Notes under the pieces: generated by a model | The model's database searches: none | Seen by the model: only the letters and a program-made list of their open reading frames with translations | Told to the model about the DNA's origin: nothing | Position numbers and translations under genes: made by a program | Assembly (NCBI GenBank): GCA_030646675.1 | Contig: JAUSKX010000029.1 | Location: forward strand, 1 to 36,201 | Direction of reading: 5' to 3' | Origin: Candidatus Azambacteria bacterium | GTDB taxonomy: Bacteria > Patescibacteriota > Minisyncoccia > UBA10092 | DNA: 36,201 nt | Part shown: piece after piece, positions 3,035 through 36,201 of the stretch | Layout: each line of letters begins with the position of its first letter | Numbering within the stretch: the stretch's first letter is position 1

Positions 3035-3601
3035 TTATAAATCCGATGCTTTGACGATTTTATTTTTGCCCGTTTGCTTGGCTTTGTAAAGCGCCTCGTC
3101 GGCTTTCTTAAATAAGCTGTCAAAATCCCCTCCTTCGGTAAAGCTGGCCACGCCTCCGCTAACTGTGACTTTTGTTTTTTCCTCTATTTTCTTTCTGATA
3201 TCGTCGAAAATTTCAAAAGCATGATTCTCGTCGGACCCAACCAATCCCACGATAATTTCTTCTCCTCCCCAGCGCGCCACTATATCGATTCCGCGCACTT
3301 TTTCTTTGATGATTTTACTGGCCTGTTTCAAAATTTCATCCCCCGCCTGATGGCCGTAAGTATCGTTAATTTTCTTAAAATTATCAATATCAAAAATTCC
3401 CAGGCTCAAACTTTTGATAAGAAAATTTTCCCGGCGCGACGGGTTTTCCAAATAACCTTTAACTTCGTCAATAAATTTCGCCGACTCCTCCTTAAAACCA
3501 TGGCGATTGTAAAGAGTTGTTAGTTCGTCCTGATAGGCCAGCCCTTTTAGCCGTGATACCTCTTCTTCCAGTTCTTTAATTCTTTTTTGTTCTTCGGTCA
3601 T
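3035..3601 (-). CDS. GGDEF-domain diguanylate cyclase with short N-terminal coiled coil
   Basis: DELTTLYNR, DIDNFKKINDTYGHQAGD, RWGGEEI, ADEALYKAKQTGKN; RxxD I-site (RGID) five residues before GGEEI. Confidence 0.93.
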   Translation of the reverse strand: MTEEQKRIKELEEEVSRLKGLAYQDELTTLYNRHGFKEESAKFIDEVKGYLENPSRRENFLIKSLSLGIFDIDNFKKINDTYGHQAGDEILKQASKIIKEKVRGIDIVARWGGEEIIVGLVGSDENHAFEIFDDIRKKIEEKTKVTVSGGVASFTEGGDFDSLFKKADEALYKAKQTGKNKIVKASDL

Positions 3602-3610
3602 ATAAATATA

Positions 3611-4519
3611 TTACACCGGCATTTCCCGCAAACGCTTAATTCTTTCTTCAATCGGCGGATGAGTCATAAAAAGTTTGCGCAGCCAAGAAGCTTTTTTCTG
3701 GCCTTTGAACGGGTCGTCCAACCATAAATGAGCCGTGGTATTATTGGCAACGCGCATAGGAGTTGCGTCTCCGGAAATTTTTTGCAAAGCCGAAGCCAGC
3801 CCTTCAGGATAACGTGTAAGTAAAGCGCCGGAAGCATCGGCCAAAAATTCTCTCTTGCGTGAAATCGCCAGTTGAATCAGCATAGCGCTGATTGGCGCTA
3901 AAATTGATAAAACTATGCCTGCAATCATTAAAATCGCTCCGGCCTGGCCATTTTCTCTGTCATCGCGCCTTCCCATGCCGCCCCAAAAAGCCGACCTTAA
4001 AAATATGTCCGAAACAATTGAAACAAAACCGACAAGAACGACTATAACCGTTGAAAGCAATATATCGCGGTTGCCGACATGCGACAATTCATGCGCCAAA
4101 ACCCCTTCAAGTTCGCTCCGGTCCAGTTTTTCAAGCAATCCTTCGGTTACGGCAACTACGGCGTGTTTTGGGTCCCTGCCAGTCGCAAAAGCATTCGGCT
4201 GCCGTTCTCGGATTAAATAAATTCTGGGCATCGGCAATCCTGCGGTAATGCTTAAATTTTCAACTATGTGATAAAGTTCGGGGGCGCTATTGTGTTCGAT
4301 TGGAACCGCGCGCGCCATTTTCAAAACTATTTTATCCGAATACCAATACGCCGCGACATTCATCAGCACGCTGAAAATAACCGCGAAATATAAAATCGAC
4401 GGGTCTCCGTAAATCCTTGAAAAGGCCCAACCGATACCGATAACGACAATAAGAAATGCCGTAAAAAGCAACCAGGTCCGCCTGATATTGGCCGACTGTT
4501 GGGTATAAAGCGTCGGCAT
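3611..4519 (-). CDS. htpX: Zinc metalloprotease HtpX (M48)
   Basis: PNAFATG, HELSH zinc motif, SRKREFLADA, THPP; follows lemA. Confidence 0.95.
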   Translation of the reverse strand: MPTLYTQQSANIRRTWLLFTAFLIVVIGIGWAFSRIYGDPSILYFAVIFSVLMNVAAYWYSDKIVLKMARAVPIEHNSAPELYHIVENLSITAGLPMPRIYLIRERQPNAFATGRDPKHAVVAVTEGLLEKLDRSELEGVLAHELSHVGNRDILLSTVIVVLVGFVSIVSDIFLRSAFWGGMGRRDDRENGQAGAILMIAGIVLSILAPISAMLIQLAISRKREFLADASGALLTRYPEGLASALQKISGDATPMRVANNTTAHLWLDDPFKGQKKASWLRKLFMTHPPIEERIKRLREMPV

Positions 4520-4524
4520 ATTAT

Positions 4525-5079
4525 TTAGAATTTAACCGCTACCGGGTCTCTTTCCGCCGCATCGTCCAGTCCAAAAAATTCTTCTTTTTTGAATCCAAAT
4601 GTTCCAGCGACTAAATTGGACGGAAAAGTGTCAATTTTAGTATTGTATTCCAAAACGTTGCCGTTATAAAACCTTCTTGCCGCCTGAATTTTGTTTTCCG
4701 TGTCCGCCAGTTCTCTTTGTAATTCCAAAAAATTAGCATTGGCTTTTAAGTCCGGATAATTTTCGGAAACCGCGAAAAGCGTTTTCAAAGTGCCGGACAA
4801 AGCGTTTTCTGCTTCAAGTTTTTCATCTTTGCTTTTGGCGCCCATCGCTTGGGTTCGCGCTTCCGTAACTTTTTCAAAAACATTTCTTTCATGCTCCATA
4901 TAGCCCTTTACAGTTTCAACCAAATTCGGAATCAGGTCGTACCTTCTTTTGAGTTGAACGTCGATATCCGACCATGCTTCTTTGACCCTCGTTCTCAATA
5001 CAATAAATCGATTGTAAGCGAAAATAAGCCACAAAACAACTGCGGCGATAACGCCTAATAATATATATAAAATATTCAT
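4525..5079 (-). CDS. lemA: LemA family protein
   Basis: N-terminal TM, WSDIDVQLKRRYDLIPNLVETVKGY, ENYPDLKAN, ARRFYN. Confidence 0.96.
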   Translation of the reverse strand: MNILYILLGVIAAVVLWLIFAYNRFIVLRTRVKEAWSDIDVQLKRRYDLIPNLVETVKGYMEHERNVFEKVTEARTQAMGAKSKDEKLEAENALSGTLKTLFAVSENYPDLKANANFLELQRELADTENKIQAARRFYNGNVLEYNTKIDTFPSNLVAGTFGFKKEEFFGLDDAAERDPVAVKF

Positions 5080-33508: not shown

Positions 33509-33631
33509 CTCAATCACCTCCCCCTCATTGTTAAAGGTCTTTTCCGCCCTCTATCCTGCCCCTAGAGTACAAATCTTGACCCAAAAAGTCAAATTTATTC
33601 CCCACCCATCATTCCGCTTAATAAACTGTCT

Positions 33632-34030
33632 TTATTTGTTTAGATAAGTAATAGTGAGCTGCAAAACGGTAGCAAATGAAACCCAAAGTAAATATGGGAT
33701 TTGAATATAAGCAATCCAGCGCGCGTGCGGATAAATGGCCGCCATTGCCCAAATAAGCGTGCCTAAAATTAATAAAATATCAATCGCCGCTAATAAATTA
33801 TTTTTGAGCCCGAATTGCAAATAAGTGAAAGAAAAATTGAAAATAAGATTTAAAATAAACGGCAAAGCGACCAAAAACGGAATTTGATTCCGCCAAGCCA
33901 TATAAAATACCTTACCGAAAGAAACTGCAATTAAAATATAAAGAAAAGTCCACACCGGACCGAAAAGCCACGATGGCGGCGCCCATGTGGGCTTTATTAA
34001 AGTCGAATACCAACCATACGCGCTGTTCAT
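33632..34030 (-). CDS. tspO: TspO/MBR family tryptophan-rich sensory protein
   Basis: WY..L.KP.W.PP.W.FGPVWT.LY and PYLLWVSFA motifs. Confidence 0.93.
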   Translation of the reverse strand: MNSAYGWYSTLIKPTWAPPSWLFGPVWTFLYILIAVSFGKVFYMAWRNQIPFLVALPFILNLIFNFSFTYLQFGLKNNLLAAIDILLILGTLIWAMAAIYPHARWIAYIQIPYLLWVSFATVLQLTITYLNK

Positions 34031-34058
34031 ATTTTTTATTTTTTATTTACTAATTTCT

Positions 34059-34096
34059 ACAACACTCTCACATTCTGCAGAATGTGAGAGTGTTGT
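34059..34096. repeat. Perfect 38-bp palindrome abutting the stop codon of the ArsR-like gene
   Basis: ACAACACTCTCACATTCTGCAGAATGTGAGAGTGTTGT equals its own reverse complement. Confidence 0.95.
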
Positions 34097-34374
34097 TAGT
34101 TGGGAAAGGTTTTAATAAACTTACAAAAGGTCTTGCCGTAAGGCGAAAGAGAATGAGCGACTTCCCTGCCCTGATATTTTTTATCAACCAAGCCGGCCTG
34201 AACTAATTTTCTGGTATGTTCGGAAATAGTTTTCATATTACAATCCAGCCTATCGGCAATCTTTTCTAAACAAATGCCGTCATTACCGGCAATTAAATTC
34301 AGTATATCAATACGGCGGTGATTGGCCACGCCTTTGAAATGTCTTTCCAATTGTTTGGCAGTTTTTATCTCCAT
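34096..34374 (-). CDS. ArsR-like winged-helix DNA-binding protein
   Basis: FKGVANHRRIDIL, HTH LEKIADRL....TISEHTRKLVQAGLV, wing KYQGREVAHSL. Confidence 0.9.
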   Translation of the reverse strand: MEIKTAKQLERHFKGVANHRRIDILNLIAGNDGICLEKIADRLDCNMKTISEHTRKLVQAGLVDKKYQGREVAHSLSPYGKTFCKFIKTFPN

Positions 34375-34399
34375 ATACCCATACTACAATATTATTACA

Positions 34400-34433
34400 A
34401 ACACTCCAACATTCTGCAGAATGTTGGAGTGTT
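34400..34433. repeat. Perfect 34-bp palindrome upstream of the ArsR-like gene
   Basis: AACACTCCAACATTCTGCAGAATGTTGGAGTGTT; related to 34059-34096. Confidence 0.95.
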
Positions 34434-34465
34434 GTGAATGGGAAAATGCAGGAGTGTTGTGAATG
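34426..34465 (+). repeat. 15-bp direct repeat of the palindrome outer arm
   Basis: GGAGTGTTGTGAATG at 34426-34440 and 34451-34465. Confidence 0.85.
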
Positions 34466-34526: not shown

Positions 34527-35369
34527 TTACAAAAAATACATATCCTGTCCGCGATCTCCAACGCCAAGATATTCCGCCCCTCCTTTTAAAATGGCTTCAA
34601 ATGGTTTGCAAGCGAAACAACCTCTATCTCCGCGAGGACAATTAAAAGTTTTTTTCTCCCGAGCAACTTTCACTTGCAAAGCAATCGCCAACACTTTTTT
34701 TCTTGCCTCATCAATATCGGGTAAAATCATATCAACAGGTTTGTCATTTCTATCGAGATACCAATATGACGCGCCGGAAACTTTACGATTTTGTAAGGCG
34801 TTCAAAAGCAGAAGATATATTGGAAGCTGAAGAGAATCCCCGCCCTCATCATGTTTGCCTGTCTTAAAATCAAGAATGCGGATACTATCGTCTTGTTCAA
34901 CGTATTCCAACCAGTCAATTAATCCACATAAAATTATATTTTCTTCATCAGATAGAAAAAAATTCGGCGGCATGCCATTGTGGCTTTCTTTGAGGCGTAT
35001 TATTTTTTGAGCAATCGGTCCCGGATTTTTTATAACTCGTTCCACCATGACCCTGCCGCGAATCTTTGCTTCAGATTCTTCCATTTCATTTTTGAATCCT
35101 CCCATTTTGCCGGAAACTTTCGCCCAAGCTTGTTCAAAATCCGCTAAAAGATCACACTTGGTTCTTTTGTTGAAAGGAATATTTTTTAGTGATTCAAGAG
35201 TTGTGTGAACCGCCTGACCAAGCGAAAGCGCTGGATTTACAATATTTATTTTTCTGCCTGTTTTGGGGTCTTTATAAACATTGCGCAGATAATAAGCTCG
35301 CGGACATTTCAAAAAGTCCCCCATGGAAGAGTGCGACACCCATATTGCCGTATATTTATCTTGAGTCAT
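34527..35369 (-). CDS. PD-(D/E)XK RecB/AddB-like nuclease with four Cys (putative Fe-S)
   Basis: SHS....F..CPRAYY, GQAVH, GLIDW, ILDFKTG, LQL.IY, C-terminal CPRGDRGCFAC. Confidence 0.88.
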   Translation of the reverse strand: MTQDKYTAIWVSHSSMGDFLKCPRAYYLRNVYKDPKTGRKINIVNPALSLGQAVHTTLESLKNIPFNKRTKCDLLADFEQAWAKVSGKMGGFKNEMEESEAKIRGRVMVERVIKNPGPIAQKIIRLKESHNGMPPNFFLSDEENIILCGLIDWLEYVEQDDSIRILDFKTGKHDEGGDSLQLPIYLLLLNALQNRKVSGASYWYLDRNDKPVDMILPDIDEARKKVLAIALQVKVAREKKTFNCPRGDRGCFACKPFEAILKGGAEYLGVGDRGQDMYFL

Positions 35370-35392
35370 TATTATTTCTTCGTTCGTATATT

Positions 35393-36201
35393 TTACGCGC
35401 CCAATATCTCGCTCATTTTTTTTATGGCTTCTGAAAGCTCCTCTTCAGTATAATAATTTTTTCCCTTAGGAACTTGTTCCTTTTTTGAAACGCCACATTT
35501 AAATGTATTATTATTATCGCCACAATGATGTATCTGATGTCTTATACATTCCAACCCATTACATCCTTCCCGTTTTTTATTATCATTATCAATATATATC
35601 CTATCTTTCACGCCATCGATACTATCTATTTTTATTTCTTTAATTTTACCAATTTTTTCTAATTTAGAATATAAAAATATAAAAAGCAATTCATCTTCTA
35701 TACCAAAAATAATATTGTCTGAAAATGGTTTTGTGAGTCCATCTTCTCCTTTTTCAAAGGAAACAATTTTCTTTTTTTCTTCAAAATTTTGAAACACAAA
35801 ATATGGATCGTGAGTTGTTATTATGACTTGATGATTATCTTGTTCTGCAATCTTTTCCAATGTCGCATTAAGTGTCCTTTTTAATCTAGGATGTAAGTAA
35901 ATTTCAGGCTCTTCAAAAAGAATGAGTACTGGATTTTCGGTATGGATTTTACGTTCAACTAAAATATCCAAATACGCTTTTAAAATCGACGCAACGATTA
36001 TTCTTTGCGTCCCCTGACCCAACTCATTAAGTCCTCTTTTTACTCCATTTTCAATTCCTGAAATGTCTTTAATGAGAGCCTGAATTATTACGCTGGGGTC
36101 AAGTTCTTCCTCATTAAATGTTATTTCGAGTGCATGCTCATTTTTCCCATTGAAACTCTTGAGATTATCGCTCGCCTTTTTCATTAGATTTCCAATATCC
36201 C
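35393..36201 (-). CDS. ABC/AAA ATPase (OLD/RloC-like) with a C-terminal HEPN-like motif; 5' end lies beyond the window
   Basis: LGQGTQR signature, ILFEEPEIYLHP Walker B/D-loop, IITTH H-loop, IRHQIHH (R-x4-H); the frame is open upstream of ATG 36184 to the window end. Confidence 0.8.
   Translation of the reverse strand, partial: DIGNLMKKASDNLKSFNGKNEHALEITFNEEELDPSVIIQALIKDISGIENGVKRGLNELGQGTQRIIVASILKAYLDILVERKIHTENPVLILFEEPEIYLHPRLKRTLNATLEKIAEQDNHQVIITTHDPYFVFQNFEEKKKIVSFEKGEDGLTKPFSDNIIFGIEDELLFIFLYSKLEKIGKIKEIKIDSIDGVKDRIYIDNDNKKREGCNGLECIRHQIHHCGDNNNTFKCGVSKKEQVPKGKNYYTEEELSEAIKKMSEILGA

Follow-up and report, generated by a model that had tools for sequence, protein, structure and literature searches.

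A gene for a small ArsR-fold protein framed by two long palindromes in Patescibacteria: a probable self-regulating repressor unit

Described systems and the palindrome-framed locus

The sensor subgroups of the ArsR/SmtB repressor family sense metals or other ligands through a Cys pair in helix α3 or a His/Asp/Glu cluster in helix α5, and the operators of CzrA, SmtB and CadC are imperfect 12-2-12 inverted repeats. HrcA is a winged-helix repressor that recognizes a perfect inverted repeat, CIRCE, which is nearly unchanged across phyla and lies upstream of chaperone operons, forming a coherent regulon. The attC sites of integrons possess bulges and an unpaired spacer, preserve symmetry over sequence at some positions, and occur in arrays at gene 3′ ends. 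Patescibacteria have few regulators, and to our knowledge almost none of these have been characterised. REP/REPIN elements have been described as short, mostly extragenic palindromic repeats that are abundant and able to form hairpins, the associated RAYT protein being a tyrosine transposase (PMC3116915).

The locus considered here lies in the genome (G000) of an ultra-small bacterium from groundwater, assembled into 30 contigs of 447,858 bases in total, with about 41% G+C. The window, i.e., the whole stretch of DNA that was analysed, is the entire 36,201-base contig C8. It contains an ORF for a 92-aa winged-helix protein of the ArsR/SmtB fold (34096..34374, minus strand, with the stop codon included at 34096-34098) between two palindromes. 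P1 (34059-34096) is a perfect 38-bp palindrome with arms of 19+19, reading ACAACACTC-TC-ACATTCTG in one arm and CAGAATGT-GA-GAGTGTTGT in the other. P2 (34400-34433) is a perfect 34-bp palindrome composed of AACACTC-CA-ACATTCTG and CAGAATGT-TG-GAGTGTT. P1 overlaps the stop codon of the ArsR-like gene by 1 base and ends 28 nt from the ATG of tspO. P2 ends 25 nt from the ATG of the ArsR-like gene (34374), its centre being 42 nt ahead of that codon. A stretch of 15 nt of the P2 outer arm, GGAGTGTTGTGAATG, occupies positions 34426-34440 and is repeated 25 nt outward, at 34451; both exact copies in the G000 genome are at the P2 locus. The extra half-site (34445..34465; family D2, 90% over 21 nt) is a direct copy of the P2 outer right arm on the gene-distal side. 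The earlier note on this DNA had described two palindromes sharing ACATTCTGCAGAATGT and the outer AACACTC/GAGTGTT, arms that differ by one dinucleotide (TC in P1, CA in P2) mirrored in the opposite arm, the stop-codon overlap, the gap to the ATG, and the arm duplication. All of these are in the sequence, and the absence of terminator features that it had pointed out was confirmed too, as P1 and P2 have neither a G+C-rich stem nor a T-run.

Each arm can be written as ACAYTC-NN-ACATTC-TG, that is, as paired ACAYTC hexamers 2 nt apart with an 8-bp period, and P1 and P2 differ solely at NN. The arms are inverted around a CTGCAG centre, giving four ACAYTC hexamers per site. A chance origin of P1 and P2 is excluded, since 20 shuffles of the contig yielded 0 perfect palindromes with an arm of at least 12. 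With one mismatch at most, the core is present three times in the G000 assembly (P1, P2, and C7:109), and a half-site scan of the genome revealed the three palindromes plus one chance-like match and nothing more. P2 overlaps a -35-like hexamer, TTGGAG (34409-34404, minus strand), followed after 17 nt by TAGTAT (34386-34381), as read by eye. A consensus promoter scan gives TTCACA-16-CAGAAT (34438-34411) instead, which overlaps P2 too. P2 is thus placed as a probable promoter operator.

Pfam searches with the 92-aa protein returned HTH_20 (PF12840, 31.3 bits, cut-off 27), HTH_5 (PF01022, 30.1 bits, cut-off 22) and HVO_A0114, all above cut-off, and the nearest PDB sequence turned out to be ArsR 6j0e (E=2.1e-5). 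An AlphaFold2 model based on 42 sequences (pLDDT 90.8) has the order α1-α2-α3-α4-β1-β2-α5, with helices at residues 6-16, 19-30, 36-42 and 47-59, strands at 63-68 and 71-76, and a last helix at 78-88; α4 is the recognition helix. Foldseek with this model gave CzrA (TM 0.86), with HlyU, CadC, SmtB and NolR also among the top matches, in a range of TM 0.75-0.87. Its modelled fold places the protein among DNA binders of the ArsR/SmtB type. The 42-sequence alignment reveals no conserved metal-site residues, no invariant or near-invariant Cys column, and no conserved His, Asp or Glu in helix α5 (78-88); His is invariant at H19, H53 and H74. Because there is neither a conserved Cys column nor an α5 His/Asp/Glu cluster, no canonical sensor site is visible in the protein. 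Such a site marks the sensor subgroups of ArsR/SmtB proteins, not the fold family. Pfam, the AlphaFold2 model and Foldseek disclosed no catalytic domain and no HUH motif. The protein family comprises at least 1,820 clusters at E<=1e-5, with generic source names only.

In fold and size, the protein is similar to HlyU and NolR, which are autoregulated and have no canonical metal site, as well as to CzrA, SmtB and CadC. It shares with ArsR/SmtB repressors the HTH_5 and HTH_20 domains and, judging from the position of P2, a dyad site over the promoter of its own gene. Unlike ArsR/SmtB operators, the site is a palindrome of 34-44 bp, usually perfect, with four hexamers; also unlike those systems, there is a second copy at the stop codon, with extra copies at gene 3′ ends and inside cysS, and the protein lacks a conserved sensor cluster, be it of Cys or of His/Asp/Glu. 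A winged-helix protein with a perfect inverted repeat conserved across phyla recalls HrcA-CIRCE, but the sites here frame the regulator's own gene and their other neighbours are unrelated housekeeping genes. The maintenance of symmetry over sequence at some positions and the location of sites at gene 3′ ends and in arrays are reminiscent of attC, from which the strongly conserved core and the perfect palindromes differ. A scan of 37 of the contig's 38 called ORFs detected no Phage_integrase or other recombinase family; the contig, 36 kb long, ends 1.7 kb past the site. As far as REP/RAYT systems are portrayed in the source cited (PMC3116915), the likeness consists in short, mostly extragenic palindromes able to form hairpins that lie close to one particular gene, with solo copies scattered in extragenic space. 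Measured against the same account, the differences are a 92-aa winged-helix partner with no catalytic domain in place of a Y1/HUH tyrosine transposase, 1-7 copies per genome (in seven genomes) against the abundance described there, perfect loopless palindromes, and no REP doublets.

Conservation of the gene and its two sites

The 16-bp core was found, with at most one mismatch, in 7 of 61 genomes (G000 and 60 relatives of its class), with 1-7 matches in each of the seven; the reversed control gave 0. A homologue at least 64% identical is encoded in six of the seven core-bearing genomes and in 0 of the 54 others, where the best match has 62% identity. Core pairs 316-341 bp apart bracket the orthologue in G000, G002, G028, G034 and G051, and in G049 the contig starts at the ArsR-like gene. 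A scan of species-representative genomes returned at least 118 bare 16-mer matches, where about 140 are expected by chance in 596 Gb; many of the bare matches are chance. Of 113 sites, 90 passed a filter for outer hexamers on both arms, and removal of a duplicate left 89 (locus L054, which overlaps L053, was left out). The filtered sites, at least 89, are distributed over many Patescibacteria lineages and are also present in Verrucomicrobiota and Kiritimatiellia assemblies of 52-62% G+C. Among the matches listed, the orthologues in the latter assemblies are 61-67% identical and the sites near-identical. In a maximum-likelihood tree of 29 homologues, the three Verrucomicrobiota/Kiritimatiellia sequences form one clade (83/90) nested among Patescibacteria. 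These are binned assemblies and the cross-phylum matches could be mis-binned contigs, although three are on contigs of 74-127 kb.

An automatic palindrome scan (arm of at least 10, at most 2 mismatches) at the 29 homologues identified an upstream palindrome in 25, mostly centred at -40 to -50 from the ATG and most commonly at -42. A stop-codon palindrome is present in 24 (the scan gave 25, from which L052 was removed as an unrelated AT-rich repeat), 12 of these being centred at +10 from the stop; in the three most distant homologues the centre falls within the final codons. The cases missed by the scan include one contig start and asymmetric sites evident by eye. The stop-codon copy is kept down to 41% identity. 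The palindrome-gene-palindrome cassette that the earlier note had proposed is therefore a real, conserved unit. On these comparisons, the gene with its two sites makes up a conserved module of Patescibacteria, of which further site copies are dispersed in the genomes. Exact-motif and keyword searches in the main texts of a limited set of PMC articles retrieved no description of a palindrome-framed ArsR-like unit. It seems that this gene-plus-site unit, recurrent across many ultra-small bacteria, is so far undescribed.

The unit resides in differing gene neighbourhoods, even within a genus. The earlier note had named strict synteny of the locus together with a lack of binding by the protein, or a palindrome scattered genome-wide with no enrichment around this HTH family, as findings that would speak against its proposals; the cassette turned out not to be strictly syntenic, and the palindrome is paired with the HTH family and not just scattered. 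The DNA common to G000 and its congener G002 is limited to window positions 33621-34433, i.e., tspO-P1-gene-P2, at 87-88% identity, with unrelated flanks. The next gene downstream of the ArsR-like gene is tspO (33632..34030, minus strand, 132 aa; Pfam TspO_MBR, E=1.6e-29). Four genomes of three separate clades of the tree (G000, G002, G028 and a Harrisonbacteria assembly, L048) have tspO after the cassette and in the same strand, which makes it the sole recurrent cassette neighbour, at 4 of about 18 group-A cassettes. The tspO product is of a short form, its Pfam match beginning at profile position 21, as are those of G002 and the Harrisonbacteria assembly; that of G028 has 165 aa and matches from position 2. 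The short form may be one without the first transmembrane helix.

Upstream, outside the unit, is a gene for a PD-(D/E)XK/Cas4-like nuclease (34527..35369, minus strand), which ends 62 nt from the extra half-site. Ahead of it is a gene for an AAA_15/AAA_21 ATPase, which stops 17 nt short of the contig end (the two spanning 34527-36199). A crude caller puts 37 of the contig's 38 ORFs on the minus strand (109-36199). In 10 of 13 relatives with downstream DNA, a PIF1/RecD-like helicase gene follows the nuclease, at the place that the cassette takes in G000. Such loci occur in two of the three genomes of the genus (G002:C12 and G003) and account for 8 of 11 metagenome loci; G005, L215/L216 and L211 differ. 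The helicase of those relatives was not found in G000. Because the relatives put the helicase gene after the nuclease and G000 has none, the arrangement at the nuclease-cassette junction of G000 is derived, and a nuclease-helicase module may have been disrupted there. None of the relatives offers a clean empty site at the nuclease-tspO junction, other genes being located after the nuclease, and in no relative examined is the nuclease joined directly to the genes that follow tspO in G000.

Homologues at 39-62% identity have the same layout with mostly other palindromes, for example ACATCCTTACAWACT..AGT, AACTATTCCAATATTCTTAAGAATATTGGAATAGTT and TATTCTAATATTCTTAAGAATATTAGAATA. The palindrome appears to vary together with the recognition-helix motif KT-x-S-E/Q-H: proteins with Ser go with ATTCT inner half-sites and proteins with Gly with ACAWWCT. 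An exception is L121, a group-B-like protein with Ser that has group-A palindromes of the ACATTC type; in group B, L037, L040 and L042 reveal a recurrent arm asymmetry, ACAAACT or ATAAACT versus AGAAT. Such co-variation is what a cognate protein-site pair predicts, as far as a small sample of related rows can indicate.

The spacer dinucleotide is mirrored in 79 of the 92 sites listed, whereas 5,000 permutations gave 32.8 on average and never more than 49, kinship among the sites inflating the counts. There are seven mirrored spacer states (CA, TA, TC, TG, TT, CG and CT), and the outer 9 nt of the same 92 sites adopt thirteen different mirrored states. Despite kinship, the seven spacer states would need several double changes. 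In many orthologues the stop codon is provided by the TA spacer of the 3′ copy (ACA TTC TAA CAT TCT G). The 5′ copies nearly always have the CA spacer, which makes TTGGAA/TTGGAG, a -35-like hexamer. A dimer reading hexamers, or protein binding as such, gives no reason for mirrored spacers. Template switching reportedly turns imperfect inverted repeats into perfect ones and helps hairpins to persist (PMC7202029, PMC8794818). In our opinion, the most likely source of the mirrored differences between P1 and P2 is such switching, in which the arms of a long palindrome would be copied onto each other at replication, with or without selection for a hairpin. Alternatively, selection for a hairpin or cruciform may account for the mirrored spacers.

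Copies of the site outside the unit

In total, 54 solo sites without an adjacent family gene were listed. Judged by crude gene calls, 20 of the 54 have a gene 3′ end within 30 nt and 8 have a 5′ end that close; the 35 solo copies with two flanking called ORFs are situated in 13 convergent, 2 divergent and 20 tandem gaps. Pfam-confirmed genes border both sides of the convergent gaps GatB/MiaA, methyltransferase/DEAD helicase and RNase Y/LysR, and many solo copies begin 0-25 nt past a stop codon. From their positions, the solo copies do not look like operators and count against a simple regulon. A coherent regulon was also considered and rejected, as the neighbours of the 54 solo sites are unrelated housekeeping genes with no common function (transketolase, a MurC-like ligase, HisRS, RNase Y, GatB, MiaA, RpoD, DnaX, PGK, DEAD helicases, and NUDIX four times). 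A marker of the replication terminus or origin, similar to RTP/Ter or parS, was rejected as well: in G028, the one genome examined for this purpose (closed, 651,549 bases), the sites at 459.7 and 502.2/502.5 kb are not close to dnaA (74.5 kb) and do not face it across the chromosome.

Sites with no orthologue were observed in 6 of the 14 site-bearing genomes examined, all of the six being metagenome assemblies. In G005, G008 and G065 nothing of the family was recovered even by profile search, G033 and G063 gave weak generic ArsR matches only, and G064 gave a 28% match. The occurrence of sites with no detectable protein counts against strict dependence of the site on the protein. A second G005 site is located at C7:3949, and both sites of that genome have the private centre CTCGAG.

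The third copy of G000 (C7:100-133, one mismatch) is in frame in cysS, within the linker between the catalytic and the anticodon-binding domains. Orthologues of cysS from the same family have a related palindrome at the same linker position. That of G005, of the same genus, is perfect over 34 bp and differs in its mirrored spacer (TG) and its centre (CTCGAG), and G008 has perfect arms around CA; the versions in G011 and G009 are degenerate and resemble the palindromes around the paralogue of G011 itself. The ACATTC-type hairpins of G000, G005 and G008 reach z from -7 to -9. G004 contains an unrelated G+C-rich palindrome (z -5.6) and G007 another inverted repeat (z -3.8), while the linker forms no hairpin in 4 of the 11 loci compared (z above -1), which are L167, at C7:85-140 of G000, and the orthologues L170-L179. 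Because the linker has the same length with or without a palindrome, the cysS site cannot be a simple insertion. The cysS gene of G000 is split, its catalytic domain ending contig C3 and its C-terminal part opening contig C7. C3:23200-23279 and C7:1-100 encode the same stretch of protein in non-identical form (66% aa identity over 29 residues), with the break just ahead of the palindrome, a picture suggestive of variation between strains or of an assembly interrupted at a repeat.

G002 has four copies, one of them frameshifted, of a segment some 100 bp long whose predicted product is a hydrophobic peptide of 26 aa (MLSILI..NSGDK): L018 (G002:C1) 3583-3681 and 4553-4638, and L017 (G002:C7) 2771-2856 and 3962-4047. 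The stop codon runs into a palindrome in L018 4553-4638 and L017 2771-2856; the copy at L018 3583-3681 is directly after a palindrome, and that at L017 3962-4047 adjoins none. This segment was not found in G000.

Competing explanations and their weight

We consider it probable that the 92-aa protein is a self-regulating repressor, an ArsR-fold protein whose target, a dyad of four hexamers, is bound both at the promoter of its gene (P2) and at the stop codon (P1), the whole being inherited as one unit. P1 and P2 would then be two copies of the cognate site of the protein encoded between them, a site with two direct hexamers per arm and the arms inverted around CTGCAG. We infer that the protein, presumably as a dimer or two dimers, binds P2 and thereby represses its own gene. 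The stop-codon copy in the same inherited unit may be a second anchor (for a loop or a roadblock), and P1 could also act on tspO, 28 nt downstream. Since P2 lies over the likely promoter, the operator role would explain the upstream copy without recombination. The 8-bp hexamer period, which is not a helical repeat, was counted against the repressor reading, as was the lack of a conserved sensor site. Among the proposals of the earlier note was a protein that binds and spreads with its own repeat. The link between protein and repeat is favoured by the change of the palindrome with the protein in distant homologues, by the solo copies and by the varied neighbourhoods. The other proposal of that note, a mobile unit with hairpin/cruciform recombination sites, found no support: 37 of the 38 called ORFs match no recombinase, integrase or transposase family, no clean empty site was seen, and the phage and plasmid collections searched gave no relative. 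In its sharpest form, with P1 and P2 serving as attC-like hairpins or cruciforms for site-specific recombination, so that a circle of about 340 bp is excised or the gene inverted, this idea is in our view extremely improbable. It draws on the fact that P1 and P2 are both a direct and an inverted repeat of each other, and on the G002 array of short genes with palindromes between them. Yet the contig encodes neither a tyrosine nor a serine recombinase family in the 37 ORFs scanned, P1 and P2 are perfect, with none of the bulges or the unpaired spacer of attC, and the orientation of the gene relative to tspO is constant in G000, G002, G028 and L048.

Were the palindromes RNA or DNA hairpins acting as terminators, stabilisers of mRNA 3′ ends, or insulators, the wHTH gene would be incidental. 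RNA folding gave -27.6 kcal/mol for P1 (z -8.3) and -23.1 kcal/mol for P2 (z -7.0), the mirrored changes preserve pairing, and the frequent positions of solo copies shortly past stop codons or in convergent gaps, with a T-run of at least 5 on one side at 12 of the 54 listed, agree with this. We nevertheless regard it as improbable: the sequence of the stem is conserved across phyla beyond what pairing demands, and it would not explain why the palindromes go so strictly with one protein family and co-vary with it. Moreover, among the copies listed no T-run of 5 or more accompanies 42 of 54 solo, 14 of 16 5′ and 16 of 19 3′ copies, a terminator scan did not call P1 or P2, and canonical hairpins with an A-tract, a GC stem and a T-tract exist elsewhere in G000. 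Since T-runs are mostly absent and the genome has ordinary terminators elsewhere, the solo copies are not standard terminators. A known RNA family was excluded too, nothing reaching the Rfam gathering score. A self-propagating palindromic repeat, a nuclease-free analogue of REP/REPIN whose partner, the ArsR-like gene, has a copy on either side in the way that REPs frame RAYT genes, would spread as a module within and between genomes, the operator role being secondary. This is unlikely in our estimation, although it deserves more weight than the two preceding readings. It would fit the unrelated neighbourhoods even of two congeners, G000 and G002, which have only the cassette and tspO in common, the helicase gene of most relatives at the cassette's place, the preference of solo copies for 3′ ends and for convergent over divergent gaps (13 vs. 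2), the in-frame cysS copy, the Verrucomicrobiota/Kiritimatiellia clade with its near-identical sites, the private centre of the G005 sites, and the repeated segment of G002 beside palindromes. The objections are that the partner has no catalytic domain or HUH motif, that a genome has just 1-7 core matches, that the 37 scanned ORFs include no transposase or integrase family, that neither a target-site duplication nor a clean empty site was seen, that the constant cysS linker length excludes simple insertion, and that the cross-phylum matches could result from mis-binning. Carriage by phages was rejected, the single viral-contig match (18 nt, with neither outer hexamers nor an adjacent homologue) being chance; tblastn of the ArsR-like protein gave no match in phages, and plasmids gave generic ArsR matches only, at no more than 36% identity.

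It is also conceivable, if doubtful, that we are dealing with a selfish or domesticated nuclease-free module, in which the gene for a small ArsR-fold protein travels with the perfect palindrome, about 34-40 bp long, that this protein binds. Such a module would have moved among Patescibacteria and into Verrucomicrobiota/Kiritimatiellia, its palindrome seeding copies at gene ends and, in frame, in essential genes (cysS), with hairpin-templated copying keeping the symmetry. If this is true, it would be a counterpart of REP/RAYT whose partner protein only binds DNA. Returning to the self-regulating repressor, a family of at least 1,820 clusters with a probable binding site beside each gene, often in the last codons, would make specificity readable from sequence. 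Textbook autoregulation does not explain why a copy lies at the stop codon, why others occupy convergent gaps and cysS, or why the arms evolve in mirrored fashion. These features point to a second role of the bound palindromes in very small genomes (roadblock, insulation, or DNA structure) or to a new route by which short palindromes spread.

Two minor observations concern the rest of the G000 assembly. Nine short contigs (C2, C6, C9, C16, C17, C18, C20, C27 and C29) have 59-69% G+C, compared with about 40-44% elsewhere, and are probably foreign to the bin. Two more long perfect palindromes of unrelated sequence, with arms of 22 and 19 nt, are located about 600 bp apart at C13:22872-22915 and C13:23496-23535.
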